A stretch of 64,000 nucleotides of DNA, taken from assembly GCA_964512625.1 (NCBI GenBank), contig CAZEKG010000003.1:22953-86952 (forward strand), read 5' to 3'. Position 1 is the stretch's first letter. Each line of letters opens with the position of its first letter. The notes under the pieces were generated by a model. It did no database searches. It saw only the letters and a program-made list of their open reading frames with translations, and was not told where the DNA came from. Source of the stretch: an uncultured Gammaproteobacteria bacterium. GTDB taxonomy: Bacteria > Patescibacteriota > Patescibacteriia > 2-01-FULL-39-33. Positions 20,374 to 55,774 of this stretch are shown one piece after another. The translations under genes and the position numbers were made by a program.

Positions 20374-20433
20374 TTAAATTTATAGACCAAAGAAATTATA
20401 TGCTTAATAAGGTCTTTTGTCAATCGATCCAAG

Positions 20434-20506
20434 TAGGCCTGGGTGGAATTGAACCACCGACATCTACGTTATAAGCGTAGCGCTCTAACCCCTGAGCTAC
20501 AGGCCC
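20434..20506 (-). tRNA. tRNA with anticodon UAU (putative tRNA-Ile reading AUA)
   Basis: Perfect acceptor GGGCCTG/CAGGCCT, anticodon stem CTACG/CGTAG, loop CTTATAA giving anticodon UAU, T-arm GGTGG-TTCAATT-CCACC. Confidence 0.7.
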
Positions 20507-42449: not shown

Positions 42450-42473
42450 AATTATAAAAAAGAGATATATAAA

Positions 42474-42500
42474 AATCCCCGTTGAGAGGGGATTTTTATT
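42474..42500 (+). terminator. terminator of the ABC exporter operon
   Basis: AAAATCCCCGTTGAGAGGGGATTTTT hairpin followed by a T-run. Confidence 0.7.
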
Positions 42501-42812
42501 TTTGGGTCAGGCACTGTCGGGTCTTATAACAGTGCTCGAGGATAAAGAGTATATGGTTACTTTACGGGAAAAAATGAATAATATCAAGAAAGTTGCCAAG
42601 TTTTACAATTACGACCTCCTGCTAGCCAAAAAGTAAAACGTTATTGCCCCTTGTCTGCCCTTGGGGCGAGCTTTGTACCCCGGGTAGACCTTTGACACCT
42701 CCTGCGACATAGCCCACCGGTTTGACGAATTTTGAAAGCTTGGGACGATTTGCTTAACTTCGGAAAAGTTAAGCAAATATGACTCCGCTAGACTTGTTCT
42801 CCGGGCGAGCGT

Positions 42813-43136
42813 ATGTTCTTGCTTGCTATGGAAGACGATGACATTGAGGCGATCCTTCGGGACGCTAAAAACATAAGAATGCCACATCGACGCGGATCAT
42901 TTAATCCGTTATCTTCACTTCCGGAACCTAAAGCCAAGATCAAACAAGCGATTAAAGAACGAATCAGACTCTTGGCTGGTGCTTATATCTCGCTCGCTGG
43001 ATTTGTTGATGATGACGATATCAGGTTTGCCGAGGATAATCCAAAGTCAAAGAAAACTCGAGCAATATATCTCAAAGTGCTCGAGGACATGGAAATAGCA
43101 AAGAAAGAGATGCGGGAGTTCAAACTGTTAAATTAA
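42813..43136 (+). CDS. hypothetical protein (GC-rich segment at the left edge of the defense/mobile island)
   Basis: 107-aa ORF in a ~500-nt GC-rich patch; weak RBS; converges on the STAND gene with a 33-nt gap. Confidence 0.3.
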   Translation: MFLLAMEDDDIEAILRDAKNIRMPHRRGSFNPLSSLPEPKAKIKQAIKERIRLLAGAYISLAGFVDDDDIRFAEDNPKSKKTRAIYLKVLEDMEIAKKEMREFKLLN

Positions 43137-43169
43137 ATACCCCTTAGTTTAATCGTAATTTGTTTCTTT

Positions 43170-46100
43170 CTAAATTATATTTTCCCTCAAAATATATCCA
43201 ACAACAGAGCCTTTTACTATTAAGAAATCTAGTACCACCAAAACCTCGTCTTTCAATTTTTTGGTTTCTCTTATTTTTGTGCGGTTTTTATAAATATACT
43301 TTCTGATCAGATTTTCAATATAGAAAAGAGTATTGACTTCAAGCTTAACAGTAAGCAGATTTTGATTTTTTACCAGCATATCTGACACCCAGAGTACGCC
43401 ATCATCCATATAATTACTTCCGATATCGTTCAGTAGTTTTGAAATTGCGTAAAGGGTTGAGGCACATTGTCCTATACTCTCTGAAATTTCTTTAAAAAAA
43501 ATTTTATCGTCATCTCTGAACGTATGCCATTCGGTAGCAGATTCCTTCCACGGATTTTGAGCAAAAAGATAGCTTTTAATAATTTTATCAACGTACCAAT
43601 ATCCATCTCCCTTTTTGCAAACCTCAACTATCTTCTCCTTAAACATTCTCCAGACTTCCCAAAATACCTCATACGAATTTAAGTAATCCTCAGCAGATAT
43701 AAATTCTTCAAAGAGATTAGCGATTGCCTCTGAACTATTAAATTTATCCAGAAATGGTTTAAGATATTCTCGAATTTCTTCTTTTGGAGAACTTAAGACG
43801 AAATAGGCTAATTTTTCTAGAAAACCATGCCTGACCTCATAATCAACCCTGTCTTCTCTGTCGCTTGAAATTAATTTTTCGGCAAAAGCAGAAATAATTT
43901 TTTTGACTATTATTTTATGTTCTTCATTTTTTGTTTTTAGAGGAACTAATTGGAAAGCTGTTTTTAATGTATGCAAATCTACCTGCTCAATATTTCCTAC
44001 ATCACTGATTAATAATTGATTGTTTTGGATTTTCTCTAAATAAGCCTTGTTTTCTTTCAAGAACTTTTTCATTACATCACCGTCTTTTATATCGTACTGA
44101 TTCTTTTTATATTTTTCTTGGCGTATCTTTTCTCTCAGGCCATCAAATTTTGGTTTCAATAATAGATAACCCAATAATACTGACTGGGTATCATCAAAGT
44201 TGGTGCCCCATAGTTTATGAATGGCTGTAATTGAAAATGCGTTAAAACTTGTACCAGCCATATCAATTGGGTAATAGTTGAACAAGTTAAACAACAAAAT
44301 TTCTTTTATTTTTGCTTTTTCTTTTGGAAATTTCTCAAATAGAAGTGGTAATACCGAGATTGCAGATTGTGCACCATCGATTGTCTGATATCGGTAATTG
44401 GGTCCAGAAGACAAAGACACTACTTCTAAAACGATTCGGTTGCAAAACTCAGCTTCTTCTTTTGAAAGCTTTTCAAAAAAATCTCTAATCATGACAGAAC
44501 AAACTTCTACTGGGATAGAATTATTTAAAAGATAGAAACCTTCTTCTTCAGAATGCTGAAGTTTAAAAGACTCGGGTTTCTTTGATGCTTTTAATTTTGC
44601 AAGGATTTCTTCGGCTTCTTTAAGCGCAAGGCTTGGGTTGTCTTCATACTGTTTGTACTGCTTATATTTTTCATCATTTACGAACCTAAAATTTGCCCAT
44701 AATTTTAATTGCAGGTATTTAGAAGATTCGGAATTCTTTTCTAAAGATTTTTCACTGTACTCTTTTAATTCCGGATCAATTTGAGGATTAAAATTAATCA
44801 AATATCCATCGTCAGTTTTTTCTGAGACAAGATTCATCTTCCTTCTATCCATTCTTGCCAAATAAAGTCTCCAGGTTTTATCCTGTTCTGTCTCCGCTGA
44901 TGGATTGGGTAATTTTTTATAGTAATCATCCAAAATTTCCCATAATACCCGTTGTCTGTTTTTTGACTCTTCTTCGTTTAAACCCTCGTTTCGAAATAAT
45001 TGGTAATTTAAAAATAGATTTTCTAAAGACAATTTTCTGTGCTTATCATCACAAGCCTGTAGTCTTTCTGACTCATGAAATTCATTCTTTGAGTTACCAC
45101 CAAATGCTTTTAGTGATAAAAGCATACTCTTGTGCCCTTGGTCTAAAACCAACCTACTCGTATCGTAAAGGAAAAAGTTTTTCGTTTTAAAAAGAATTTT
45201 AGCGATATTAAAGGTCTTTTCAGGATATGCCAAAACAATGCTTGCTATTATGCCTGAGATAGAAGCTGATTTTGAATTTCTGAGAAGATACAAGAGCCAG
45301 CTTTCCAAGGTCTCTGAATTGGCAACCTTCCCATTTTCAAGAAAAAACTTTTCTAAAGCCATATGAATGGATTCTAGAACATGGGGAGAAGTTTGCGTTC
45401 CTCTGAATGTACACCAAAGTCTACAACTTATGTATTGCTTTATTGATTTATCTTTTTCAATAATAACTTCAACTTCTTCGACTTCGTATTTAGCAAATTC
45501 GGACTTAGCAAAATATTCGACTGTTTTATTTGTAAATTTTAATATGAAGTCTATTGTTTCTTGAAGCGAGGATTGAAGAAGCCAGTAAATCGGAGTCTGA
45601 TATGAACTGGCTGGGAAATAATCCAAATGGTCGTCTTCCATGTCAAAATACTCTTCTACTCCCATCCCCGAACGGGTATGGAAATGATCTTTAGGGGGCG
45701 TAAAAGACCAAAAAAGATCGGCTATTTGCAAAACATATTTTGGAAGGATCTTGGCAATTGTTGCACCTTCGAATTTAGTCAAAATAATTTCAGACAAATC
45801 ATGATATGGATCCCTATGGTTTTTCCACTTATTTTTTACGACTTCTTTAAAAATCTCCTCTAACTCATTTTTAATTTCAGCAGAGCTATAAATAATAGTT
45901 TGTAAGAGATTATTTTTTGTATCATCATCGGAAATATAAACATCTTTTTCTATAGTCCATTGATAGTATTTTAGTGCCATTAAGCCGGAATATTTTGTCG
46001 TTTCTCCCTCTTTAAATTTACTAGTCCAGTCGTGGATTATCGGTAAGATAAAATGGATATTTTGAATACCAACTTGATCAAAATTATCAAAAACAAATTT

Positions 46101-47975
46101 AATAAGGCATTTCCACCCCTGTCCTTTCGGTCTCGTTAAAATGTATTTGAGAGAAAAGATATTTAAATTTTGAACTCCTAATTGTTTGAAAAAGTCATCG
46201 TCAACTTCCTTACAAGCAATCCTTAAAAGGAAAAATATTCTATGTAATAAGCTTTCTTCGTATTTATAGTTGACGGTTAGAGATTGTACGACTTTGGATG
46301 AATTGTCGTACTTAACTACTTTTTCAGGTACACTTAGCAATTCATTTTTAAACAATTCAAAGAAAACAGAGGAGAAATCGGAAAGTAAAACCGAGACCAA
46401 TATTTCATCTTTCCAAAAAGATTTTATATCTTTATCCTTAATAGTTTGTTCGATAAAACTTTTGATCTCACTATTTTGTAACAACAACTTTTCCGATACC
46501 CATTTCCTGAAAGCACGACGCAAAGGCAAAGAGCTGCCTAGATTTTGAAAAAAAGTTTTATTGTCAGTCTTTTTCCCGAATTCAATCTCAATATTTTTCT
46601 CAAGTGCCCACTCCTCATAGATATCATGAGTGATGAAATATCCGTGAGGTGACTCATATCCTAAAATCCCGTCCTTCTTTAGCTCGTTATCTAGAATCCC
46701 TGATTCACAATCTGTATTAATAAAGAATTGTCCATCAGTTGCTCTCTGCAATGCCATTTTTAAAAAGCATTGTTCTCTCGCGGGTTTAGATTTAATGATT
46801 ATCTTATTCCACAGTTTGTCTTTAAAATCAGTATAGTTTATTTGTTCACCGTCCTTGTAGTATTTCAAATATTCGTTTAAGTAAAATGGATTTTTAATAA
46901 GGTCTACTAATTTTTCATCGTTGGGGAGAGAAAAATGATATATTTCAGAAAGTTTACTTAGTTCTTTTGCTTCTAAATTTTGTAAATTGATGTTTAAAGG
47001 GGCAATTTTATAAATCTCAAAAAACTGATAATTTAAATCTTCTAGATAATTATCTCTTGTTGTAAAAATAACTTTCCAATTTTCCTTAACCGCTATAGAT
47101 AAAAACTCCTTAAAGGGATCGGGGTTTTTTAAATCCAACAGTTTTTCTGCGGAATCAATTACGATAATTTTATCGCCATCATTTTTATGCCCATCTAGAA
47201 AATTCTGAAAACTGTATCCTGTAAAAAATTCGCTTATATTTCTCAGCTCAAATTCGGTTGCCTTAAAAATATAGAAGGGCATCTTACCTTTTGTTTCTTC
47301 ATAGAAGTCTTTGATGGTCGCTGTCTTTCCAACCCCACCAACACCACTTAAAATTAAAACTTTTTCTGGGCTGACCTTTATTTTTTCCAAGTCGCCACTT
47401 CTGTCTATTTTAATATTTTGACCATTAAAGATTATGGCCGTTTGTATCTCATTTAAAATATTTTCTGAATGTTCCTGTTGATTTTTTATGAGGTCAAATA
47501 TACTTTTGTCTAAACTAAAAAAATGTTTAGCTATTATTTCATTATCAACAGAAACAAAATTTGATTCAAAAAAACTAGCAGTTCTCCATTCTAATTTGAT
47601 ATTAAGTGTATTCGCCTTGCTTTCTATGTCTTTTTTCCCTTGAGGTTCTTTGCCTTTATTTTGTCCCCACTCCTCATTGGTATACAAGATTAATTTCGTA
47701 ATATTTATATAATCTCTCTTTGTCTTTTCAAGGATATTGATTAATTCAGTTGAGTGATTTGATAATGATGTACTATAAAATTTAGCCTGCCAACCTATTA
47801 CTTCTTCTTTTTCTTGAATAGGATCTGTTTCTATGGCAGATTGATTTTTATAACGAAAAATCCCAGTTGTTTTATTAAACTCTCTACAAAACAACGAATA
47901 GCAAAACCACTCAAAGTTATTTTGAGGATTTTCGCTAAATTTTGCTCTAAAGATGTCCCATGATGGCTTAATCAT
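43170..47975 (-). CDS. NB-ARC/STAND NTPase, 1601 aa: N-terminal putative nuclease-like effector + P-loop NTPase + ~1100-aa helical C-terminal region (Avs/bacterial-NLR-like antiphage candidate)
   Basis: Walker A GVGGVGKT (aa 211-218), Walker B KIIVIDSAE (aa ~270), RNBS-B-like VIFTTRD (aa 302-308), GLPL-like NPFYL. N-terminus has E22...D51...Q63-A-K65, reminiscent of PD-(D/E)xK. Last gene of an RM operon, 5-nt gap to the upstream gene. Confidence 0.7.
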   Translation of the reverse strand: MIKPSWDIFRAKFSENPQNNFEWFCYSLFCREFNKTTGIFRYKNQSAIETDPIQEKEEVIGWQAKFYSTSLSNHSTELINILEKTKRDYINITKLILYTNEEWGQNKGKEPQGKKDIESKANTLNIKLEWRTASFFESNFVSVDNEIIAKHFFSLDKSIFDLIKNQQEHSENILNEIQTAIIFNGQNIKIDRSGDLEKIKVSPEKVLILSGVGGVGKTATIKDFYEETKGKMPFYIFKATEFELRNISEFFTGYSFQNFLDGHKNDGDKIIVIDSAEKLLDLKNPDPFKEFLSIAVKENWKVIFTTRDNYLEDLNYQFFEIYKIAPLNINLQNLEAKELSKLSEIYHFSLPNDEKLVDLIKNPFYLNEYLKYYKDGEQINYTDFKDKLWNKIIIKSKPAREQCFLKMALQRATDGQFFINTDCESGILDNELKKDGILGYESPHGYFITHDIYEEWALEKNIEIEFGKKTDNKTFFQNLGSSLPLRRAFRKWVSEKLLLQNSEIKSFIEQTIKDKDIKSFWKDEILVSVLLSDFSSVFFELFKNELLSVPEKVVKYDNSSKVVQSLTVNYKYEESLLHRIFFLLRIACKEVDDDFFKQLGVQNLNIFSLKYILTRPKGQGWKCLIKFVFDNFDQVGIQNIHFILPIIHDWTSKFKEGETTKYSGLMALKYYQWTIEKDVYISDDDTKNNLLQTIIYSSAEIKNELEEIFKEVVKNKWKNHRDPYHDLSEIILTKFEGATIAKILPKYVLQIADLFWSFTPPKDHFHTRSGMGVEEYFDMEDDHLDYFPASSYQTPIYWLLQSSLQETIDFILKFTNKTVEYFAKSEFAKYEVEEVEVIIEKDKSIKQYISCRLWCTFRGTQTSPHVLESIHMALEKFFLENGKVANSETLESWLLYLLRNSKSASISGIIASIVLAYPEKTFNIAKILFKTKNFFLYDTSRLVLDQGHKSMLLSLKAFGGNSKNEFHESERLQACDDKHRKLSLENLFLNYQLFRNEGLNEEESKNRQRVLWEILDDYYKKLPNPSAETEQDKTWRLYLARMDRRKMNLVSEKTDDGYLINFNPQIDPELKEYSEKSLEKNSESSKYLQLKLWANFRFVNDEKYKQYKQYEDNPSLALKEAEEILAKLKASKKPESFKLQHSEEEGFYLLNNSIPVEVCSVMIRDFFEKLSKEEAEFCNRIVLEVVSLSSGPNYRYQTIDGAQSAISVLPLLFEKFPKEKAKIKEILLFNLFNYYPIDMAGTSFNAFSITAIHKLWGTNFDDTQSVLLGYLLLKPKFDGLREKIRQEKYKKNQYDIKDGDVMKKFLKENKAYLEKIQNNQLLISDVGNIEQVDLHTLKTAFQLVPLKTKNEEHKIIVKKIISAFAEKLISSDREDRVDYEVRHGFLEKLAYFVLSSPKEEIREYLKPFLDKFNSSEAIANLFEEFISAEDYLNSYEVFWEVWRMFKEKIVEVCKKGDGYWYVDKIIKSYLFAQNPWKESATEWHTFRDDDKIFFKEISESIGQCASTLYAISKLLNDIGSNYMDDGVLWVSDMLVKNQNLLTVKLEVNTLFYIENLIRKYIYKNRTKIRETKKLKDEVLVVLDFLIVKGSVVGYILRENII

Positions 47976-47980
47976 CGTAA

Positions 47981-48745
47981 TTACTTTATTTTTTGAAATA
48001 CAAAAAGGTGCTCGTGCATTATTAATAAAAAGTTAGCGGCCTTAGACTTATCTACCCAGAAACCTGTCGCCTTGCAGTTAAACTGTCTCTTAATTATGTC
48101 CTCCTTTAAAAGAAAGCCTGCTTTCAAGAAACGGTCCATAACCTTATAAGCTAGTGGCTGATACATCTTATTTCGTCTGGTATCTCCCATTAAAATAGAA
48201 CAAAATTTGCCGGGCTTCAAAACCCTAAAAAATTCCTTAGCAACCTTTTCCATTTCATCACAAAAAGCTTCGATGTCGTGGATATTTGATAAATCATCAA
48301 CCAGCTTGCCCTCGCTGTATTTGATGATATCTACATACGGAGGATGAGTAAGAACAAAATCAACGGTATTGTCTTTTATTTTCTCAAGATTGCGAGAATC
48401 CCATTTAAAGCCTCTTTGCCAGCTTTTATTCTCAACTTTAAAATCCAAACATTTCTTTGTCCGGTCCAAAGCTTCTTGATTTACATCAGAGTAAACAATA
48501 TTCCTATTGAGAATTTTTGCTTCGATTGCGGTCGTGCCACCACCAATCATAGAATCGAGCAAAATATCACCTTCCTTTGAATATCGCAAAATGAGATTTC
48601 GAGCCACTTCAGGCGACCAATTTCCTCTCCAATCTGAAGTATGTGTTGCCCAATTACCTCGGCGAGGAAAAGCCCAAACCGTGGTACATTCTAGCTCGAA
48701 GTCATCAGGATGTAATTTTATTTCTGTATCCTTTTTCGTTGTCAT
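47981..48745 (-). CDS. SAM-dependent DNA methyltransferase (N6-adenine/N4-cytosine type; motif I GGGTT before motif IV HPPY)
   Basis: ILLDSMIGGGTT (motif I) ~75 aa before LTHPPYVD (motif IV). Third gene of the M-R-M cassette, analogous in position to M.MboC/DpnA. Confidence 0.7.
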   Translation of the reverse strand: MTTKKDTEIKLHPDDFELECTTVWAFPRRGNWATHTSDWRGNWSPEVARNLILRYSKEGDILLDSMIGGGTTAIEAKILNRNIVYSDVNQEALDRTKKCLDFKVENKSWQRGFKWDSRNLEKIKDNTVDFVLTHPPYVDIIKYSEGKLVDDLSNIHDIEAFCDEMEKVAKEFFRVLKPGKFCSILMGDTRRNKMYQPLAYKVMDRFLKAGFLLKEDIIKRQFNCKATGFWVDKSKAANFLLIMHEHLFVFQKIK

Positions 48746-48751
48746 AATGAG

Positions 48752-49609
48752 TTACCATGTTAGTTTGTCCAAGGCACCAGCCTCGAGCATGTTCAAATTA
48801 AAAACATACTCATTATGGTTATAAGTTTCTTCAAGAGGTCTCTTCGTTGTGTTCCAACCCAAGCCATCAGTTATCCAAATGAAGTCGATATTTTGTTCTT
48901 TAAGTTCGCTATACAAACTTTTGAATTCACCGCATACGGCTTTTAGCTTTGATCCGCCACCATTATAAAAATTGGTTTCAAATAATTTAATCTTTTTATT
49001 TTTAGGGTTATATACGGCGAAATCAAAACTTCTTTCTGATTTATCTATTTTTACATCCACGCCCCACTTACTTTTTATATTAGTGGCACGAGCCTGTGCC
49101 ATGTATTCAAACCCGTTTTTATTACAAAAATCACTGATGAATGTTCCAACAATTTCTTCCATCAAAGAACCGCCCCGGTTCTTTCGGCCATTACTATCAA
49201 GACCGACTTCAACTCCCATAACATAATCGACTAAGTTTTTAACGCCGTCTTTTTTGAATAAACGAGCGAGACCAGATTTATCTAAAAATTCATAATATTT
49301 CTCTGAATCTTGTTCCTTACCTGAAAAATCAAAGAAGTCTGAGTTCTTAGTAACCTTATCAAATACCTCAAGCTTGTTTTCTCTGACCGCCAAAAGCACG
49401 GGCAAAGCCTTAACAATGTCTGGGTTAGAGCTATAGAGTTTCTTAAATTCGCCCTCGAGGTCATCTTTACCAAGAAGATAATTGAGTTTATTAAGAGCAA
49501 TTTCTAAATCCGAGCTGTTTGAAAAAACCTTCTTCCAGTTTACGAAATAATCCCAAGTCTTAATTGAGCTTTTAAAGGTAGCTATTAGGTTATTAAAATC
49601 TTTTTGCAT
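48752..49609 (-). CDS. type II restriction endonuclease, DpnII/MboI family (GATC)
   Basis: NLVDYVMGVEVGLDSNGRKNRGG, FDFAVYN...TNFYNGGGSKL, FIWITDGLGW closely track the R.DpnII family sequence as I recall it. Confidence 0.8.
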   Translation of the reverse strand: MQKDFNNLIATFKSSIKTWDYFVNWKKVFSNSSDLEIALNKLNYLLGKDDLEGEFKKLYSSNPDIVKALPVLLAVRENKLEVFDKVTKNSDFFDFSGKEQDSEKYYEFLDKSGLARLFKKDGVKNLVDYVMGVEVGLDSNGRKNRGGSLMEEIVGTFISDFCNKNGFEYMAQARATNIKSKWGVDVKIDKSERSFDFAVYNPKNKKIKLFETNFYNGGGSKLKAVCGEFKSLYSELKEQNIDFIWITDGLGWNTTKRPLEETYNHNEYVFNLNMLEAGALDKLTW

Positions 49610-49616
49610 ATTATAT

Positions 49617-50573
49617 TTAGTAATTAGTTATTAAGACTTCCGTGACTTTTCCTCTTCCTGAACCATTGGAATTAATGGCTCGGCCAGCCTGAACCTTATT
49701 AATGCGTACCCCTTTAATTCCAGAATATATTTTATTGATGAATGGAGTGTCAGAATTTGAAAGCATAACGAAACAACCTCTTTTATTTAACTCAACAAGA
49801 GTATTACGAAGTTCTGTCTGCTCTTTATCCAAAAATGATTCAGCCGTGTACGAAGTAAAAGAAGCAGTCTTACTAACTGGGTAATATGGTGGATCAAAAT
49901 AAATAAAGTCACCCTTTTTTGCTTTTTTAAGAACTTCTTTATAATCCTGATGTTTTATATCAATATTCTGAAGTGCCTTTGATACCTTTCGCAAATTATC
50001 TTCATCGCAAATAAGAGGATTGGTATATTTACCAAACGGCACATTAAATCCTCCCTTACTATTTACCCGATACATTCCATTAAAACAGGTGCGATTGAGG
50101 AATATAAAACGAGAAGCTACTGCAACATCGCTTAGCTTGTTTGGGTCCTGAGCACGAACTTCCAAAAAGTAGTCCTTATCGGTTTTGTGCTTCTTAAGTG
50201 AAACGATTAATTTTTCAAGGTCATTTTTTATGACATTATATGTGACAACAAGTTCTTTGTTTAAATCAGAGAGAAACCCTTCTTCTGGGAGAAGATCAAA
50301 GAATACCGCACCACCACCGACAAACGGTTCAAAGTACCTGCTTTTCTTAGGATCAAAGTTTTCTGGTGGATAAAGATTCATCCTTCTGAATTGAGCGAGA
50401 AGTTGTCGCTTGCCACCAACCCATTTAACAAACGGCTTCGGCTTCTCTGCAATGATGCGTGCCGAATCATCGAGTAGGTTTGTTTTATCAGCAAGAGAAA
50501 AAACTCTGCGAGCAAAAATCGCATTTATATCGAAAGTTTTTTGAATAGTTAGAATTGATTGTTTTGTTGTCAT
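49617..50573 (-). CDS. Dam-family (D12 class) N6-adenine DNA methyltransferase, GATC-type
   Basis: KWVGGKRQLL, FEPFVGGGAVFFDL (motif I), DFIYFDPPYYPVS (motif IV), and overall colinearity with M.DpnII/Dam. Confidence 0.85.
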   Translation of the reverse strand: MTTKQSILTIQKTFDINAIFARRVFSLADKTNLLDDSARIIAEKPKPFVKWVGGKRQLLAQFRRMNLYPPENFDPKKSRYFEPFVGGGAVFFDLLPEEGFLSDLNKELVVTYNVIKNDLEKLIVSLKKHKTDKDYFLEVRAQDPNKLSDVAVASRFIFLNRTCFNGMYRVNSKGGFNVPFGKYTNPLICDEDNLRKVSKALQNIDIKHQDYKEVLKKAKKGDFIYFDPPYYPVSKTASFTSYTAESFLDKEQTELRNTLVELNKRGCFVMLSNSDTPFINKIYSGIKGVRINKVQAGRAINSNGSGRGKVTEVLITNY

Positions 50574-50581
50574 AAATCTTT

Positions 50582-50782
50582 TTACTTTTTATTTGACTTA
50601 CCAGAAATGTTGCTGGTATTTTCCAAAAACTTTTGCAAATCCACTTCCGTTATTCTCCAACTTCCAATTTTTGATGCCTTTAGTTTCCCAGAGTCAATAT
50701 AACGGTTTATAGAGCGACAACTAACTCTTAATATTTTGGCGGTTTCCTCGATAGTGAAGAGTTTATCAATTTTGGTAGTCAT
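50582..50782 (-). CDS. excisionase-family (AlpA/Xis-like, MerR-superfamily) HTH protein, first gene of the RM-STAND operon
   Basis: 66 aa, IEETAKILRVSCRSINRYIDSGKLKASKIGSWRI is the typical excisionase-family HTH; 8-nt gap to the Dam gene. Confidence 0.6.
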   Translation of the reverse strand: MTTKIDKLFTIEETAKILRVSCRSINRYIDSGKLKASKIGSWRITEVDLQKFLENTSNISGKSNKK

Positions 50783-51015
50783 AAAAGATTTCTTTGCTTA
50801 TAAGTTTATACTTACATTTTACCGCTTACGGATTTCATTGTCAAAAGTGGCAGATTTTGTCATAATACACTTGTAAGCTTTGTTAATCGGATATAATCAA
50901 CTACATACGATTATATTCATAAGTATCCGAAAGTTAGTGAATGGGAGGCATAAAATGGGCCCGATTCACTAAAAAGCTAACTGGAAGTAAGGATTAAGCT
51001 TATATCCAGTAAAAA

Positions 51016-51696
51016 ATGAGTATGAAAATGAAAAAGGCCTCCATGGCCACTAAATACAAATTTAATATAAGAAAAGCGGTGGAATTTGCATCGACCTATC
51101 GGTTATCTATTGCCACCACTGAAAAGATTTTGCGATCTTCAATGAAGTCTGCTGGCATAGCTGATGGCGATCAGATTATAAAGCACAACCAACCGGCGAT
51201 CGGACTTCTTACCAAAGAAATCATTGAGACGAAACTCGAAGTAAAAGGTATCCGGTCCCTCTTGGAACGCCGAACCAGTAAATTTGAGGGGCTGACCGAA
51301 TATGATCAGCAATTTATAAAAACATTTGCTCGGGAGGCGGCGATTTCTTTTGCTGAATATTTTGCAAAGAGCACAAATACTCCAGCCGGCAAGACCATCG
51401 TATACATCTCATCCGACTGCGAACTGTATCGTGAGCCAAAGAGTCAGTATTGTTTTAGAATGGAAGCCCCGAGTAAAAGAATGAAGCTAATCACCGCAAT
51501 GATGGCCACCAAAAAATACATACCGACCCAAACATTGGCTGACATCACTGGATTGGCAAGCATTAAATCGGTTCAAAGTGCGGTCCAAGCAATAAGGCGA
51601 TCCGCAGAAAAGAAACTTGGGCTCTTAAAATTTATCGACGGCTGGCAGGATTCCGGGTACCGCATCAATCCAAACATAATGTTGAAAAAAGAATAA
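51016..51696 (+). CDS. putative winged-helix (OmpR/CadC-type C-terminal) DNA-binding protein
   Basis: C-terminus TQTLADITGLASIKSVQSAVQAIRRSAEKKLG...GYRIN resembles the trans_reg_C winged helix. Confidence 0.4.
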   Translation: MSMKMKKASMATKYKFNIRKAVEFASTYRLSIATTEKILRSSMKSAGIADGDQIIKHNQPAIGLLTKEIIETKLEVKGIRSLLERRTSKFEGLTEYDQQFIKTFAREAAISFAEYFAKSTNTPAGKTIVYISSDCELYREPKSQYCFRMEAPSKRMKLITAMMATKKYIPTQTLADITGLASIKSVQSAVQAIRRSAEKKLGLLKFIDGWQDSGYRINPNIMLKKE

Positions 51697-51839
51697 AGCT
51701 CGTAAGGTACTCTTAAGACCCCTGTTAATAACTTTTTACAAAAGCGACCAAAGCGGTCGTTTTTTTGTTTTGAAAATTCAATCAAAGAGTATGTAAAGAG
51801 GCGCAACTCGATTGGTATAAAGAATATGCAAACATCTTT

Positions 51840-52022
51840 ATGCCGAAGCCAATAATCACAAAGAAAATACCGCCTCTCACCCCAGCTCAAATGGAGGAAA
51901 TTTTCATGGACAGATTAGCCGATCTGATTGTCCGACTTTTGGATTATCGCTACGAGCAAAAAGAGAAAGAAAAACAATCTAATAATCAAAATGAATATGA
52001 AAAACCAAACACCAGACAATAA
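51840..52022 (+). CDS. small hypothetical protein (60 aa)
   Basis: ATG ORF with protein-like helical composition; overlaps the next gene by ~30 nt in another frame. Confidence 0.3.
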   Translation: MPKPIITKKIPPLTPAQMEEIFMDRLADLIVRLLDYRYEQKEKEKQSNNQNEYEKPNTRQ

Positions 52023-52254
52023 TTTTATTACCAGCGACTTCTACACGGCCTGTCTGCTCTTGGCCAACGACTATCACCTTGTCGGCATAAACAAGACCGA
52101 CAGCCGACGCTTCCGCTTTATCTTCACTGATGAACCGGATCGGGTCCAAATCGTTGCCGGATACTTTGACGGCCTAACGAGCGTTAACACTCGCAAGTTT
52201 GTAAACGCCATTAAAGAGCTGAAGTCGCTCATGTATAACGACGCGATCAGTTGA
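51991..52254 (+). CDS. small island-associated protein (DUF5659-like by memory)
   Basis: MNMKNQTPDNNFITSDFYTACLLLANDYHLVGINKTDSRRFRFIFTDEPDRVQIVAGYFDG; start placed at the internal ATG because the upstream part is Lys-rich junk. Confidence 0.35.
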   Translation: MNMKNQTPDNNFITSDFYTACLLLANDYHLVGINKTDSRRFRFIFTDEPDRVQIVAGYFDGLTSVNTRKFVNAIKELKSLMYNDAIS

Positions 52255-52273
52255 AAATAATCAAATATGAAAT

Positions 52274-53050
52274 ATGGAAAATTTGCCATTCGAAATAGAT
52301 AACAATGATTACGTAAAGCTTCCACGAAGCATCAAAACCGCCCTTGTGGACGGCTATTTGAGTTTTGAGGAATACTCGGTCCTCGTCTGGCTGTGGATCA
52401 CTGCCAACCCACGAATGGGTAAAGCACACGTAAGTTATGCCGGGCTGTCCAAGGACTTCAAAGAAAAGTATTCCAAGAATCACATCAATCGACTAATGCT
52501 GAACTTGAAGCATAAGAAGTGGGTATGGTTTGCTGGACAGCAAGGTCGCAGAAGTTCGTTCCATGTTGATATCGCCAATTACCCCTTATCAAATGGTGGT
52601 TTTGTCAACATTGAAGTACGACAGAAACAGAAGTTCGGCAGAAGTGAGGATGATATTACAGAGCATTCACCAGCAGAAGTGCCGACAGAAGTTAGCGACG
52701 TTCAGCAGAAGTTGAAAGACGACAAAAACGCTTTAGTGGATAGGTTTTCTTTCAATTCTGAAAGTTCGCTCGGCAGAAGTTCCAAGAACGATAACGAAAA
52801 AGAAAATAAAAACAACCGATCGAATCGTGGTCGACAGCCGGTAAGAGAATTCTCTCCCAAGTCTTACGAGGAACAAAAATGCTGTGAGATCGCCCAAGAG
52901 CTGGGAGAAAAGGATATGACCTTCATCCTATCGGCTCTGAAAAGGTACGGACTGACGAGAATTGAGGAAGCTTACCGGTCTGTAATGGATCAACCGAGCG
53001 ATAAGGTTAAAAACAGGGGTGCATACTTTAATCGTTTGCTAAATCTTTAA
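52274..53050 (+). CDS. putative replication-initiator-like / winged-helix DNA-binding protein
   Basis: N-terminal LSFEEYSVLVWLWITANPRMGKAHVSYAGLSKDF...NHINRLMLNLKHKKWVWF looks like a rep/replisome-organiser winged helix; sits next to iteron-like repeats. Confidence 0.35.
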   Translation: MENLPFEIDNNDYVKLPRSIKTALVDGYLSFEEYSVLVWLWITANPRMGKAHVSYAGLSKDFKEKYSKNHINRLMLNLKHKKWVWFAGQQGRRSSFHVDIANYPLSNGGFVNIEVRQKQKFGRSEDDITEHSPAEVPTEVSDVQQKLKDDKNALVDRFSFNSESSLGRSSKNDNEKENKNNRSNRGRQPVREFSPKSYEEQKCCEIAQELGEKDMTFILSALKRYGLTRIEEAYRSVMDQPSDKVKNRGAYFNRLLNL

Positions 53051-53051
53051 A

Positions 53052-53447
53052 ATGCCCAAGCTTAATTACTTAAGACCAAAACATAAGCGAGCGATTGAGA
53101 TGAGGTGGCAGAGTATTCACTACGATGAAATTGCTAGTGAGGTGGGAGTCACTCTTGATGCGATTAAGTCGTGGTTCAGAGCCAATGGATTTTTGAGAGA
53201 AGCCTACAACCAATACGCCGAGGATCAGATTTTGATCCGAAAACTTCAGGACAAACAGGAAAGAATAAATACACTTAACAGCAACAATCAGCAACAGGAC
53301 GCAACAAATTCGGCTAATTTGCCGGTTTTCAAAGCCTTTCAGAAACTGTCGCCAAAAGATCAAGATGATGTTATGAAAAGATTTAACGAACTAAACAGAG
53401 GGGCCGAAAAGAAAATAAATACACTAAATGGAATTAAACGGAACTAA
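53052..53447 (+). CDS. HTH protein (terminase-small-subunit-like / sigma70 region-4-like N-terminus)
   Basis: LRPKHKRAIEMRWQSIHYDEIASEVGVTLDAIKSWFRANGFLREAYNQY helix-turn-helix pattern; 2 nt after the upstream gene. Confidence 0.35.
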   Translation: MPKLNYLRPKHKRAIEMRWQSIHYDEIASEVGVTLDAIKSWFRANGFLREAYNQYAEDQILIRKLQDKQERINTLNSNNQQQDATNSANLPVFKAFQKLSPKDQDDVMKRFNELNRGAEKKINTLNGIKRN

Positions 53448-53614
53448 AGTACACCAAATCACACCAACTTACACTAACTAACACCAAAAAATGAAAAGAA
53501 TAAATACACTTAGACCCGATAAAATCCAACATTATCCAACAATAGAGCGGAAAAATCGCCAGGCCACCTAATCCGATCCTAAATAACCGGTGAAAGTGGA
53601 AATAAATACACTTA
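53264..53614 (+). repeat. four iteron-like direct repeats GAAA(GA)ATAAATACACTTA
   Basis: Copies at 53264-53277, 53414-53427 (one mismatch), 53499-53512, 53601-53614. Also CAGTTAAAT(G/A)CAG x2 and ACACCA-rich motif at 53450-53490. Confidence 0.6.
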
Positions 53615-53760
53615 GATACAGTTAAATGCAGTTAAATACAGCGTTTAGAGAAAAATCTGAACTGTGGGCAACTCAAGCTTAGCTTGTCGACAAAATTAGT
53701 ATAGGGTGTCAGTGAAAGGTCTCTTAATAAAAATTAAACGATAATTAAAATGAAAATAAT

Positions 53761-55461
53761 ATGGAACATGCATTAATTTACTGCCGAGTCTCAACTGAGG
53801 AACAAGCCGAGGACGGCCACCATTCCCTAGCGACTCAGCTCAAGCTCTGCAAGCGAGCGATCGAGGAAAGCAACAAATATAAATTAGCCGAGGACGGCGT
53901 CTTTGAAGACCCGGGCCGATCAGCCACCAATATGAATCGCCCCGGACTGCAAGATATGCTACTGCGAATTCAAGACGACAAAGCGATCAAGGCAGTTTTT
54001 ATTCAAGACACTGACCGACTGGCGAGAAATGCTCTTGATCACATGCAGATCAAGGCAATCATGAAAAAGCATGATGTTGAATTATTTTCTGTCTCCCAGC
54101 CGGGCATTACTGATAGCCCCGAGGGAAACTTTATGGACTTGGTTATTGCCGGTGTGAACCAACTCCAATCACAAATAACCTCCAGAAAGACCCTGAAAAG
54201 CCTTGAACAAAAATTCTGGGAGGGTTGGTGGCCGACTGGTGTGGCCGTTGGATATTTAAATGCTGGCGAACCGGACGATGAGAAAAAGAGAATTATTATT
54301 GTAGACGAAGAACGAGCCCCACTTATTCAAGAGGCATTTAAAATGTATGTGACCGGAGATTATTCAGTCTTTGAAGTTCGTGACGCTTTATACAAAAAAG
54401 GTTTTAGAACTCACGCCGACAAACGACTGGCTCACAGCAAGATGATTGAGATCTTAAAAAATCCTTTTTATTACGGTGAGATGAGGTGGCGAGGATTAGT
54501 TAACACCGGAAAACATAAACCACTTATAGATAAAGATTTGTGGGAACGAGTCCAGCTGGTTATGGCCGAACATAACCGCTATGCCTGCCGACGGCAAAAG
54601 TTTAACTTTATTCTGCGAGGCCTAACCTTTTGTGCCAACTGCGGACAAAGATACACCGCCGAACACCACCCTAAGAAAAATAAATCTTATTACCACTGCA
54701 ACCGGTCCGGAGATCAGATTAAATGCAGTGATAAATACGTGGAAGTTTGGGATATAGAACAGCAGGTCGCTGATTTATTTAAGTACATAGAATTTACTCC
54801 TGATTTTACCGACAGACTGGTGGCCAAAATTGAAAAGATTTACAGCGGTCGCAAAGAAGTGATTAATAAAGATAAGAAAGCCCTGAACACTCAAAAGATG
54901 ATGTTTGAAAAGAAACGAGACACTGCCGAGGAAAAACTATTTGCCGGACTTATCACGGATGACGACTTCTCCAGAGTAAAAGTAAAAATCAAAGAACAGC
55001 TCGAGTTATTGCAAGACGAACTGTACGCTCAAGATAAAAAGCTAAACATGAGAATAGACGAATTGCAGGATATGCTTTTATTCGTCCGCAACGCTTACGA
55101 AGCCTATACCAAATCGCCGGATGAAATGAAGAGATTATTTCTCGGTCTTTATTGGGAGAGGTTTGAAGTAGCCGACAAAAAAATCCAAACCGTAATACCA
55201 TCACCAATCATCAGAGGTCTGATGCAAGCGGAGGATCTAGTCTTTACCAAGAAATACAAGGAGATTGCCGGTCCGAGGATAATAACCGACTTAGCCGTAG
55301 AATTTACACCATTCATAGCTGGTAAATCAAAATCCAAGATTGCCCCTAAAACGCAAAAATCCCGACAAATTGCCGAGATTCCTGCAATGATATCCAATCA
55401 ACCGAACTCGGTTATATTAGATACCGTTTGGGGTGGCTATCGAGAATTGAACTCGAGTTAA
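53761..55461 (+). mobile_element. large serine recombinase (integrase)
   Basis: Resolvase catalytic domain ALIYCRVSTEEQ (Ser nucleophile), recombinase domain, zinc-ribbon CANCGQRY...YYHCNRS, C-terminal coiled-coil; 566 aa. Confidence 0.85.
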
Positions 55462-55535
55462 CGGTACCACAAACCGCTGTGTTAACCACTACACCATAGC
55501 CACCAAATTATTACATCGGCATAGACCGATATTTG

Positions 55536-55607
55536 TGTCCCCGCCAGGAATCGAACCTGGATAGCCAGCTTAGAAGGCTGGTGTTCTATCCATTGAACTA
55601 CAGGGAC
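55536..55607 (-). tRNA. tRNA-Arg (UCU)
   Basis: Acceptor GTCCCTG/CGGGGAC, anticodon stem CCAGC/GCTGG with loop CTTCTAA, T-arm CCAGG-TTCGATT-CCTGG. Its 3' end faces the recombinase gene 75 nt away. Confidence 0.8.
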
Positions 55608-55774
55608 TTATTCTGATCTTGAGTAATTTACGGTTGTTTTTATTATTGCCGGCAAATATAGTCAATAGCCTCATAATAGCAGGAAATTTCGTTAAAGTCA
55701 ATAGTAATAAGGTTGCTATCACTCTAGTAATCTGCTATTATAATCTTGTTTAATCTTTATTATTAGATAAAACT

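Follow-up and report, generated by a model that had tools for sequence, protein, structure and literature searches.

A cluster of five genes in a candidate phyla radiation (CPR) bacterium raises the question of whether restriction-modification (RM) genes and a neighbouring defence gene form one immune system or two that travel together. The cluster lies in a 64,000-nt stretch of contig CAZEKG010000003.1 (assembly GCA_964512625.1), hereafter the window, and encodes a small helix-turn-helix (HTH) protein, two DNA methyltransferases (M1 and M2) on either side of a DpnII-family endonuclease (R), and Avs4, a very large STAND nucleoside triphosphatase (NTPase). An initial annotation of this DNA had proposed a composite system that couples restriction to an NLR-like sensor. 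We find instead that the locus is one state of an RM-anchored slot for defence cargo and not a dedicated RM-NLR fusion system, and that its genes are probably co-transcribed. From the identities and spacing of the genes, the conservation of their promoter, the turnover and breakpoints of the cargo, and the island context, we consider it likely that the slot resides in a Patescibacteria chromosome, on a small island whose serine recombinase targets tRNA genes, and unites two independent layers of defence in one transcription unit.

The DpnII-like cassette and its Avs4 neighbour

The five open reading frames (ORFs; coordinates in Table 1) are all on the minus strand and separated, in gene order, by 8, 7, 6, and 5 nt, which exactly reproduces the coordinates and gaps first reported for them. 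The term "translational fusion" in the initial annotation does not fit, as M2 and the large protein are separate ORFs with a 5-nt spacer. Family-profile and PDB matches agree with the identities originally suggested for the five products (an Xis-like HTH protein, a Dam-type methyltransferase, an R.DpnII-like endonuclease, a second methyltransferase, and an Avs-related STAND NTPase). The start codons are credible, with family models or homologues aligning from residues 1–9 of each protein; the Avs4 N-terminus reads MIKPSWD, compared to MVKPNWD in EcAvs4 (AVAST type 4; PDB 8DGF). Across 43–51 kb, the G+C content drops from about 0.42 to 0.31–0.36. The HTH, M1, and M2 proteins all begin with the residues MTTK.

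The cassette has the components of a DpnII/MboI-type RM system, namely a DpnII-family endonuclease, a Dam/DpnM-like methyltransferase, and a second methyltransferase of the N6_N4 family. M1 scores 296.8 bits with TIGR00571 (dam), and its best PDB match is M.DpnII 1 (2dpm, 234 bits); an N-terminal extension of about 43 amino acids (aa) precedes the region covered by the family models and DpnM and is kept in all related cassettes. Residues 4–281 of R align with profile positions 1–277 of 278 in PF04556, R reaches 327 bits with the PADLOC model REase_II, and its specificity is predicted to be GATC. M2 matches PADLOC MTase_II (PDLC03376, 280 bits) over its full length and has the position and family of DpnA and M.MboIC, an assignment based on family models. 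DpnII-type systems possess two methyltransferases, of which DpnA acts on single-stranded DNA (PMC4471560). The gene order M-R-M in the window differs from dpnM-dpnA-dpnB in DpnII, and in comparison to DpnII and MboI the window cassette is headed by an HTH_17 gene, is followed by cargo, and has the extended M1. This M-R-M order, found here and in about 60 related cassettes, is reportedly also that of MboI. The window contains 264 GATC sites compared to 271 ± 15 expected; this absence of depletion neither supports nor refutes RM activity, and an active endonuclease therefore implies complete GATC methylation.

The HTH protein exceeds the cutoff of the NCBIfam excisionase model (TIGR01764 excise, 32.3 bits, cutoff 28.8), has weaker matches to PADLOC mad1 (3.7e-7, 28 bits) and, in the PDB, to phage Gp37/Xis (4j2n), and is probably the regulator of the operon. 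Its gene lies inside a 94%-identical segment common with locus L001 (L numbers designate the loci compared with the window), although the recombinases of the two islands are just 30% identical, and we therefore assign it to the RM block and not to the integration module. Only the RM clades nearest the window possess it, and more distant RM clades in similar islands lack it. A principal function as the excisionase of the island was rejected, since the gene moves with the RM block across islands with unrelated recombinases. Membership in two known groups was also rejected. For MADS, there are only weak matches to mad1 (HTH protein) and mad2 (M2), the NCBIfam MAD1 model is not reached, and PADLOC and NCBIfam reveal no other mad genes in the five-gene cluster. 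The co-oriented small HTH gene, together with a conserved repeat overlapping the promoter that suggests autoregulation, recalls type II RM systems controlled by C proteins, but the protein is of the HTH_17/excisionase type and not Xre (HTH_3), its gene precedes M1 and not R, and the candidate operator consists of direct repeats and not of a C-box palindrome.

The large protein is a bona fide Avs4, a catalogued single-gene system (PADLOC, NCBIfam) with a solved structure in EcAvs4. It matches the NCBIfam equivalog NF041815 over its full length (2120.9 bits, cutoff 1500; residues 6–1601 to profile positions 2–1579), and a single phmmer alignment places its residues 1–1601 on residues 1–1587 of EcAvs4 (8dgf_A, 1879 bits), with a collinear nuclease-STAND-sensor architecture. 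The N-terminal nuclease effector (about aa 1–170, E49...Q63-A-K65), presumably of the Mrr-like restriction-endonuclease fold, is followed by the STAND NTPase and a C-terminal sensor (about aa 520–1601). The previously noted motifs GVGGVGKT (Walker A, aa 211–218), IIVIDSAE (Walker B, aa 270–277), and VIFTTRD (TTR at 305–307) are present, and G211, G214–T218, D274, S275, E277, T305–R307, E49, and K65 are invariant in 21 Avs4 homologues, with Q63 nearly so. The stretch IGWQAKFY aligns with IGWQSKFY of EcAvs4, and both the Walker motifs and the E...QxK residues of the nuclease, which we take to be the catalytic ones, are intact. The earlier description of the protein as NB-ARC/Avs/NLR-like holds in that it is an Avs-related STAND NTPase. 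"NB-ARC" is a loose label, as Pfam NB-ARC (PF00931) is not matched and the sole Pfam match of this Avs4 is to AAA_14 (2.5e-4, below cutoff), and the protein is not a new NLR-like sensor; some Avs4 homologues do carry precomputed PF00931 or PF20720 matches. Avs4 recognises the portal protein of phages, and its N-terminal nuclease becomes active upon tetramerisation (PMC11897194, PMC13601566); judging from the family, the Avs4 of the window would likewise sense portal protein and act abortively through its nuclease.

Cargo turnover at the 3' end of the cassette

To view the cluster from its RM side, we scanned metagenomes with the endonuclease and obtained 80 loci (49–99% identity), about 60 of which retain the order Dam-R-M2; none of the 80 contigs with R relatives contains Avs4, and no relatives of the endonuclease were found among viral contigs. 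A complete M2 and sufficient downstream sequence were available for 45 cassettes. In 17 of these a co-directional gene starts ≤25 nt after M2, in seven more the distance is 26–100 nt, and the genes downstream of M2 represent at least 15 unrelated families. In a tree of the Dam-R-M2 DNA, cargo turnover is far faster than cassette divergence, with five different cargoes in six cassettes that share at least 88% nucleotide identity. The cassettes of L001 (Avs4) and L089 (NACHT) are 99.3% identical over the 3085-nt RM block and diverge about 10 nt before the M2 stop. Within the clade of the window, cargo of five families is always co-directional and starts −4 to 21 nt after the M2 stop. The proximal breakpoints fall in the last 2–4 codons of M2 (after ...MHEHLFVFQK), the distal ones in a convergent 107-aa gene (~43136) or in the island end segment (~42785–42500). 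Several slot variants come from one metagenome (Ga0172379), in which contigs also break inside M2, a pattern that strain-level variation at the slot would produce.

The cassette thus forms a conserved RM flank with cargo exchanged at a fixed position, and apart from the unannotated families this cargo consists of defence genes, ranging from a NACHT STAND protein and GajA to a retron and a second RM system (Table 1). Five to six cargo families are without annotation. The slot proteins of L090, L093, L110, L133, and L146 have no match in Pfam, NCBIfam, PADLOC, or PHROGs, and together with the family in L092, L128, and L158, which likewise lacks any Pfam or NCBIfam match, they measure about 650–1260 aa; their position makes them candidate new defence genes.

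Defence hotspots are well established on satellites, P2/P4 phages, and pipolins (PMC9122126, PMC11551731). The slot shares with these hotspots, and with those of integrative and conjugative elements, the conserved flanks, the exchanged and mostly defensive cargo, and the integrative element at a tRNA gene, but here one flank is the RM operon itself and, in the clade of the window, the apparently promoter-less cargo lies no more than 21 nt from the last stop codon of that operon. Precedents for defence genes inside an RM operon with a small regulator are PrrC in EcoprrI (PMC12707154) and the RptR-type I RM-DarTG2 operons, in which the hsdS-hsdR junction was proposed by the authors as a recombination hotspot (PMC12255303). 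As in these operons, the RM genes of the window follow one promoter and the gene of a small DNA-binding protein, and they carry a passenger of the abortive-infection type at an insertion hotspot. In contrast, the anchor in the window is a type II GATC system and not type I, the regulator is HTH_17 and not RptR, the host is a CPR bacterium, and the slot lies at the 3' end of the operon and not between hsdS and hsdR. Furthermore, there is no sign that Avs4 guards the RM system in the way PrrC does.

Table 1. Features of the window and of the compared loci. Positions without a locus handle refer to the window.
Feature	Locus and position	Strand	Evidence or remark
HTH_17/excisionase-family DNA-binding protein, 66 aa, first gene	50582..50782	-	Pfam HTH_17, 1.1e-14
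M1, Dam-family (D12, alpha-class) N6-adenine DNA methyltransferase, DpnM-like, 318 aa	49617..50573	-	Pfam MethyltransfD12, 1.5e-63
R, DpnII-family type II restriction endonuclease, 285 aa	48752..49609	-	Pfam DpnII PF04556, 1.4e-94
M2, permuted N6_N4 DNA methyltransferase, 254 aa	47981..48745	-	Pfam N6_N4_Mtase (PF01555), 8.9e-22, two permuted stretches
Avs4 (AVAST type 4), 1601 aa, current cargo-slot occupant	43170..47975	-	PADLOC Avs4, 2299.9 bits over 1-1601
Conserved promoter block ATTATGACAAAAT-N3-GCCAC-TTTTGACAAtGA-N8-aGCGGTAAAAT	50816..50866	-	-35 TTGACA 50844-50839, -10 TAAAAT 50821-50816
Inverted repeat AGTGAATcGG-N15-CCcATTCACT	50936..50970		Divergent intergenic region between 226-aa gene and HTH promoter
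Other island genes: 226-aa, 108-aa, 258-aa, 131-aa ORFs	51016..53447	+	ORF listing
Large serine recombinase (integrase)	53761..55461	+	Pfam Resolvase + Recombinase + Zn_ribbon_recom; PHROG integrase, 3.1e-82
tRNA-His(GTG), overlaps recombinase 3' end, proximal island border	55429..55503	-	ARAGORN, Rfam
107-aa ORF, convergent with Avs4, distal flank of cargo slot	42813..43136	+	No Pfam or PHROG match
Conserved distal island end segment	42500..42812		Common to L090 (91.6%), L008, L094, L146, L001
Cargo: 1954-aa NACHT STAND protein	L089		Pfam NACHT + NPHP3_N
Cargo: GajA	L124/L125		708 bits
Cargo: type XI retron, reverse transcriptase-protease	L109/L111		467 bits
Cargo: PDC-S53	L121		1330 bits
Cargo: PDC-S06	L113		94 bits
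Cargo: AriA/PtuA-like ATPase	L100		PADLOC + NCBIfam
Cargo: C5-methyltransferase + restriction endonuclease pair (second RM)	L097		PADLOC
Cargo: HTH-fused helicase resembling type IV restriction endonuclease/PbeA	L094-L096		PADLOC + NCBIfam
Cargo: RecQ/DpdF-like helicase	L123		PADLOC + NCBIfam
Cargo: weakly Dsr1-like (C-terminal)	L158:7920-10943 (relatives L092:3545-7102, L128:9644-13144)		PADLOC, 57 bits
Unmatched slot proteins	L090:5303-9055, L093:3474-7265, L110:4791-6770, L133:9570-11987, L146:9810-12089		
Tight RM neighbour of Avs4: M2 of this cassette type	L008		
Tight RM neighbour of Avs4: C5 methylase	L010		
Avs4 embedded in type I/IIG RM operon	L016:2432-12623		Between N6_Mtase/Methylase_S fusion (13 nt) and HsdR-like ResIII+EcoEI_R_C gene (6 nt)
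Tight RM neighbour of Avs4: MmeI/TaqI-type target recognition domain	L020		
Tight RM neighbour of Avs4: ResIII	L042		
Tight RM neighbour of Avs4: HsdS	L079		Other side: Schlafen/AlbA_2 ATPase

Promoter conservation and proposed transcription of the slot

The best sigma-70-like site in the 42–52-kb region (TTGACA-17-TAAAAT, 11/12 positions, 50844–50816) is located just upstream of the HTH gene. Promoter-like matches are overall no more frequent than in shuffled sequences (28 vs. 32 ± 5), and therefore only the position of this site and its conservation across loci carry weight. In an alignment, across 12 loci, of the 250 nt that precede the HTH start, the block ATTATGACAAAAT-N3-GCCAC-TTTTGACAAcGA-N8-aGCGGTAAAAT (50866–50816) is nearly invariant; the neighbouring ~70 nt are highly variable, and the coding DNA of these loci is only 75–94% identical. 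The block contains two TnTGACAA direct repeats, 19 nt apart, the second of which overlaps the −35 element. These repeats are a candidate operator for the HTH protein, and the pattern is as expected for an autoregulated promoter, with the HTH protein probably controlling its own operon. That no terminator intervenes, as had been stated before, is borne out insofar as the cluster contains no convincing one on its own strand, just two weak hairpins (5 pairs at 50523–50507 and 7 pairs at 44189–44169). Co-transcription of the five genes from one HTH-headed promoter is thus the most economical reading, and a probable one. Farther upstream, an inverted repeat (Table 1) is kept in most of the 12 loci, including L008, L090, and L094 with their differing flanks, and is degenerate in L128 and L146. 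The leaders of host genes in the window are likewise short and A/T-rich, and a Shine-Dalgarno-like motif precedes five of 36 host genes; missing Shine-Dalgarno motifs were therefore rejected as a special trait of the operon.

The alternative that survives best, although we regard it as fairly improbable, is mere adjacency, with the RM cassette and Avs4 as independent transcription units that abut in a tightly packed island or genome. CPR genomes are compact, host genes have the short leaders described above, and a weak promoter-like sequence (~8/12, read by eye) in the conserved 3' end of M2 could give the cargo its own start. In addition, the cargo of other cassette clades follows at a distance of 37–88 nt (GajA, retron, HTH-helicase) or is encoded on the opposite strand, and tight coupling is therefore not universal. 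These last two observations also weigh against a common transcript as we propose it, as do the nature of the promoter and terminator scans, which are consensus matches not validated for CPR bacteria and no more numerous than in shuffles, and the assignment of the HTH operator from conservation. The same applies to function, where the relatives behind the extrapolated GATC specificity and portal sensing share about 50–60% identity or are known only at the family level. Mere adjacency is in turn difficult to reconcile with the 5-nt spacer, which leaves no room for a promoter outside M2, with the constant position and direction of five cargo families in the clade of the window, and with the site upstream of the HTH gene being the sole strongly conserved promoter.

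According to the RM-anchored slot model, the conserved promoter would give rise to one polycistronic mRNA comprising HTH, M1, R, M2, and then the slot gene (here Avs4), with the HTH protein autoregulating the operon via the two TnTGACAA repeats. In a first layer of defence, M1 and M2 would keep chromosomal GATC methylated, and R would cut incoming unmethylated GATC. Phages that escape restriction would make portal protein late in infection, and its binding by the C-terminal sensor of Avs4 would constitute the second layer, in which tetramerisation via the ATPase would render the N-terminal nuclease active and abort the infection. Cargo would be swapped between related elements by recombination in the flanks, that is, in the 3' end of M2 and in the 107-aa gene or the island end. 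The two layers would be mechanistically independent, yet inherited, regulated, and moved together, with Avs4 as one of many alternatives. More tentatively, HTH-M-R-M might be a dedicated docking and expression platform, on which genes lacking a promoter would dock at the M2 stop codon and depend for their expression on read-through or translational coupling. The RM operon would then set the dose or timing of toxic effectors such as Avs4, and the unannotated slot proteins would be new CPR anti-phage systems; we consider this extension possible, although the odds are somewhat against it.

Avs4 partners, the mobile island, and its host

Seen from the Avs4 side, the combination is rare. Searching one genome per species yielded 80 Avs4 loci, which are spread over many bacterial phyla, CPR lineages, and archaea, and the layout HTH-Dam-DpnII-M2-Avs4 is present in one of them, a Saccharibacteria metagenome-assembled genome (MAG; L008). 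This locus has the same 5-nt junction and is 78–81% identical to the window at the nucleotide level, with protein identities of 84% (Avs4), 89% (M2), 86% (R), 83% (Dam), 71% (HTH), and 88% (recombinase). The layout recurs in only two other element lineages. One comparison reveals its mobility: window positions 42782–51068 are 94% identical to L001, whereas the products of the flanking island genes are 27–30% identical, which argues that the HTH-RM-Avs4 block moves as a unit. The Avs4 protein itself is about 52–53% identical to its enterobacterial orthologues.

In a survey of upstream spacers based on crude gene calls (71 evaluable loci), the median distance between Avs4 and its upstream neighbour was 197 nt. 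The neighbour is co-directional and >100 nt away in 36 loci, divergent in 14, and co-directional within 20 nt in 12. One of these 12 is an artefact, and in six of the 11 real cases the neighbour is an RM gene, of unrelated types (Table 1). The Avs4 gene of the window differs from that of EcAvs4 in its CPR host and in starting 5 nt after a methyltransferase gene, with no upstream spacer of its own; most Avs4 genes have more than 100 nt upstream. In the metagenomic relative L005 (Avs4 86% identical), a ResIII gene overlaps the Avs4 start, and the DNA of this locus resembles the window precisely over the Avs4 ORF and nowhere else; L042 and L073 are further ResIII-Avs4 elements. A gene for a LexA-like/Peptidase_S24 repressor lies 12–19 nt upstream of Avs4 on the same strand in three loci of CPR or metagenomic origin (L006:2422-2802, L007:9347-9982, and L014:9347-9988), which suggests that a damage response controls Avs4 in this lineage. 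Avs4 is thus a mobile single gene. It mostly stands alone, and a place at the tail of an RM operon is frequent without being the rule.

These distributions bear on the composite system proposed in the initial annotation, in which Avs4 and the GATC cassette would be interdependent, for example through methylated GATC (N6-methyladenine) shielding host DNA from the Avs4 nuclease or through mutual signalling. The very tight junction kept in three element lineages, including the divergent L008, speaks for such a system, as do the repeated proximity of Avs4 to other RM systems and an effector that presumably has a restriction-endonuclease fold. However, the partners of Avs4 are unrelated RM types (I, IIG, III, and C5), LexA-like repressors, or nothing, with distant or divergent neighbours in 50 of the 71 loci, and the same RM cassette occurs at 88–99% identity with unrelated cargo. 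Furthermore, EcAvs4 functions as a single gene (PMC11897194). Because of this promiscuity on both sides, we consider an interdependent RM-Avs4 system very unlikely. The architecture was also described as non-standard, which is correct insofar as the combination is not a named subtype in the libraries searched; Avs4 and DpnII-type RM systems are both already known.

The cluster represents low-GC cargo within an island of ~13 kb (about 42500–55503) that is bordered proximally by the serine recombinase gene and tRNA-His. The tRNA targets of related islands are tRNA-His (L008), tRNA-Asn (L001, L089, and L146), and tRNA-Leu (L094). Throughout this family of small islands, the recombinase gene overlaps or adjoins the tRNA gene (window 55429-55503; L001:2829-2904; L089:2127-2201; L094:16-102), and across tRNA target types the recombinases are merely 25–30% identical. 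Homologues of the island genes at 51016–53447 are syntenic in L008, L090, and L094. The 131-aa protein (53052–53447) has weak matches to Sigma70_r4_2 (9e-4) and to a small terminase subunit (PHROG 7344, 1.1e-6), and because this protein and the integrase are found without structural genes, the island may be a phage-satellite-like element. The 107-, 226-, 108-, and 258-aa island proteins have no match in PHROGs, Pfam, PADLOC, or NCBIfam. In the literature searched, we found no description of this element family (~13 kb, large serine recombinase overlapping a tRNA gene, CPR hosts).

On the distal side, copies of the 107-aa gene flank other cargo at 89–93% identity in L001-L004, L089, L092, and L093, and copies with 46–49% identity are present in L005 and L128. 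The similarity of the distal end segment stops at 42499–42504, adjoining the terminator of an ABC-transporter gene (42469–42499). A repeat search and a local alignment of 42460–42580 with 55380–55640 yielded only chance-level matches and no att-type direct repeats linking the island ends, and the island borders are therefore approximate. Several further sequence elements were observed in the island. An inverted repeat or hairpin, TTGCTTAAC-N9-GTTAAGCAA (42750–42776), with an invariant stem and a variable loop, lies about 35 nt upstream of the 107-aa gene, and a second inverted repeat, GCACTGT-N11-ACAGTGC (42511–42535), lies beside the border. Four copies of AATAAATACACTTA(A/G) (53264–53615, spaced 150, 85, and 102 nt) cover the last part of the 131-aa gene and the gap that separates it from the serine recombinase gene, and look iteron-like or like binding sites of the recombinase or a regulator. 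At the gathering threshold, Rfam detected only tRNAs in the window.

That the RM genes would mainly stabilise this island by post-segregational killing, with defence as a by-product and the HTH protein as the island's excisionase, is the least likely of the alternatives. In its favour, type II RM systems can be selfish addiction modules, excisionase families match the HTH protein, and the cassette is a conserved core beside a rapidly changing cargo region. Against it, the HTH gene accompanies the RM block between islands with dissimilar recombinases and other RM clades on similar islands lack it, and the usual partners of Xis-type HTH proteins are tyrosine and not serine integrases. The roles in addiction and defence are not mutually exclusive, and such a function may exist in addition.

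The window is part of a bacterial chromosome, as it encodes valyl-tRNA synthetase, translation initiation factor IF-2, polynucleotide phosphorylase, RNase Y, and MurE. The nearest named relatives of the valyl-tRNA synthetase belong to Candidatus Buchananbacteria and other Patescibacteria (65–70%), and the closest Avs4 (97%) is annotated in a Candidatus Paceibacterota MAG; the host is thus a CPR bacterium, in agreement with the earlier guess at a reduced-genome organism. The window also encodes a tRNA-Ile with a UAU anticodon (tat; 20433–20506), an uncommon bacterial route to decoding AUA, which is usually read by a lysidine-modified CAU tRNA. CPR bacteria, or Patescibacteria, were long thought to be poor in defences. 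Published studies report dense defence repertoires and defence-enriched horizontal transfer in these organisms (PMC12259885, PMC12455944).

The locus reveals no new kind of immune protein, as both Avs4 and DpnII-type RM systems are well known. What is new is the arrangement, in which a defence-cargo slot with fast turnover is anchored by a conserved type II RM operon that probably also supplies its promoter. It extends the theme of RM operons with an embedded abortive-infection passenger from type I systems (PrrC, DarTG2/RptR) to type II, and RM operons belonging to four types repeatedly turn out to carry Avs4 at their tail. Finally, guilt by position in the slot is an inexpensive means of finding new defence genes in an uncultivated phylum, and several large unannotated proteins already occupy it.

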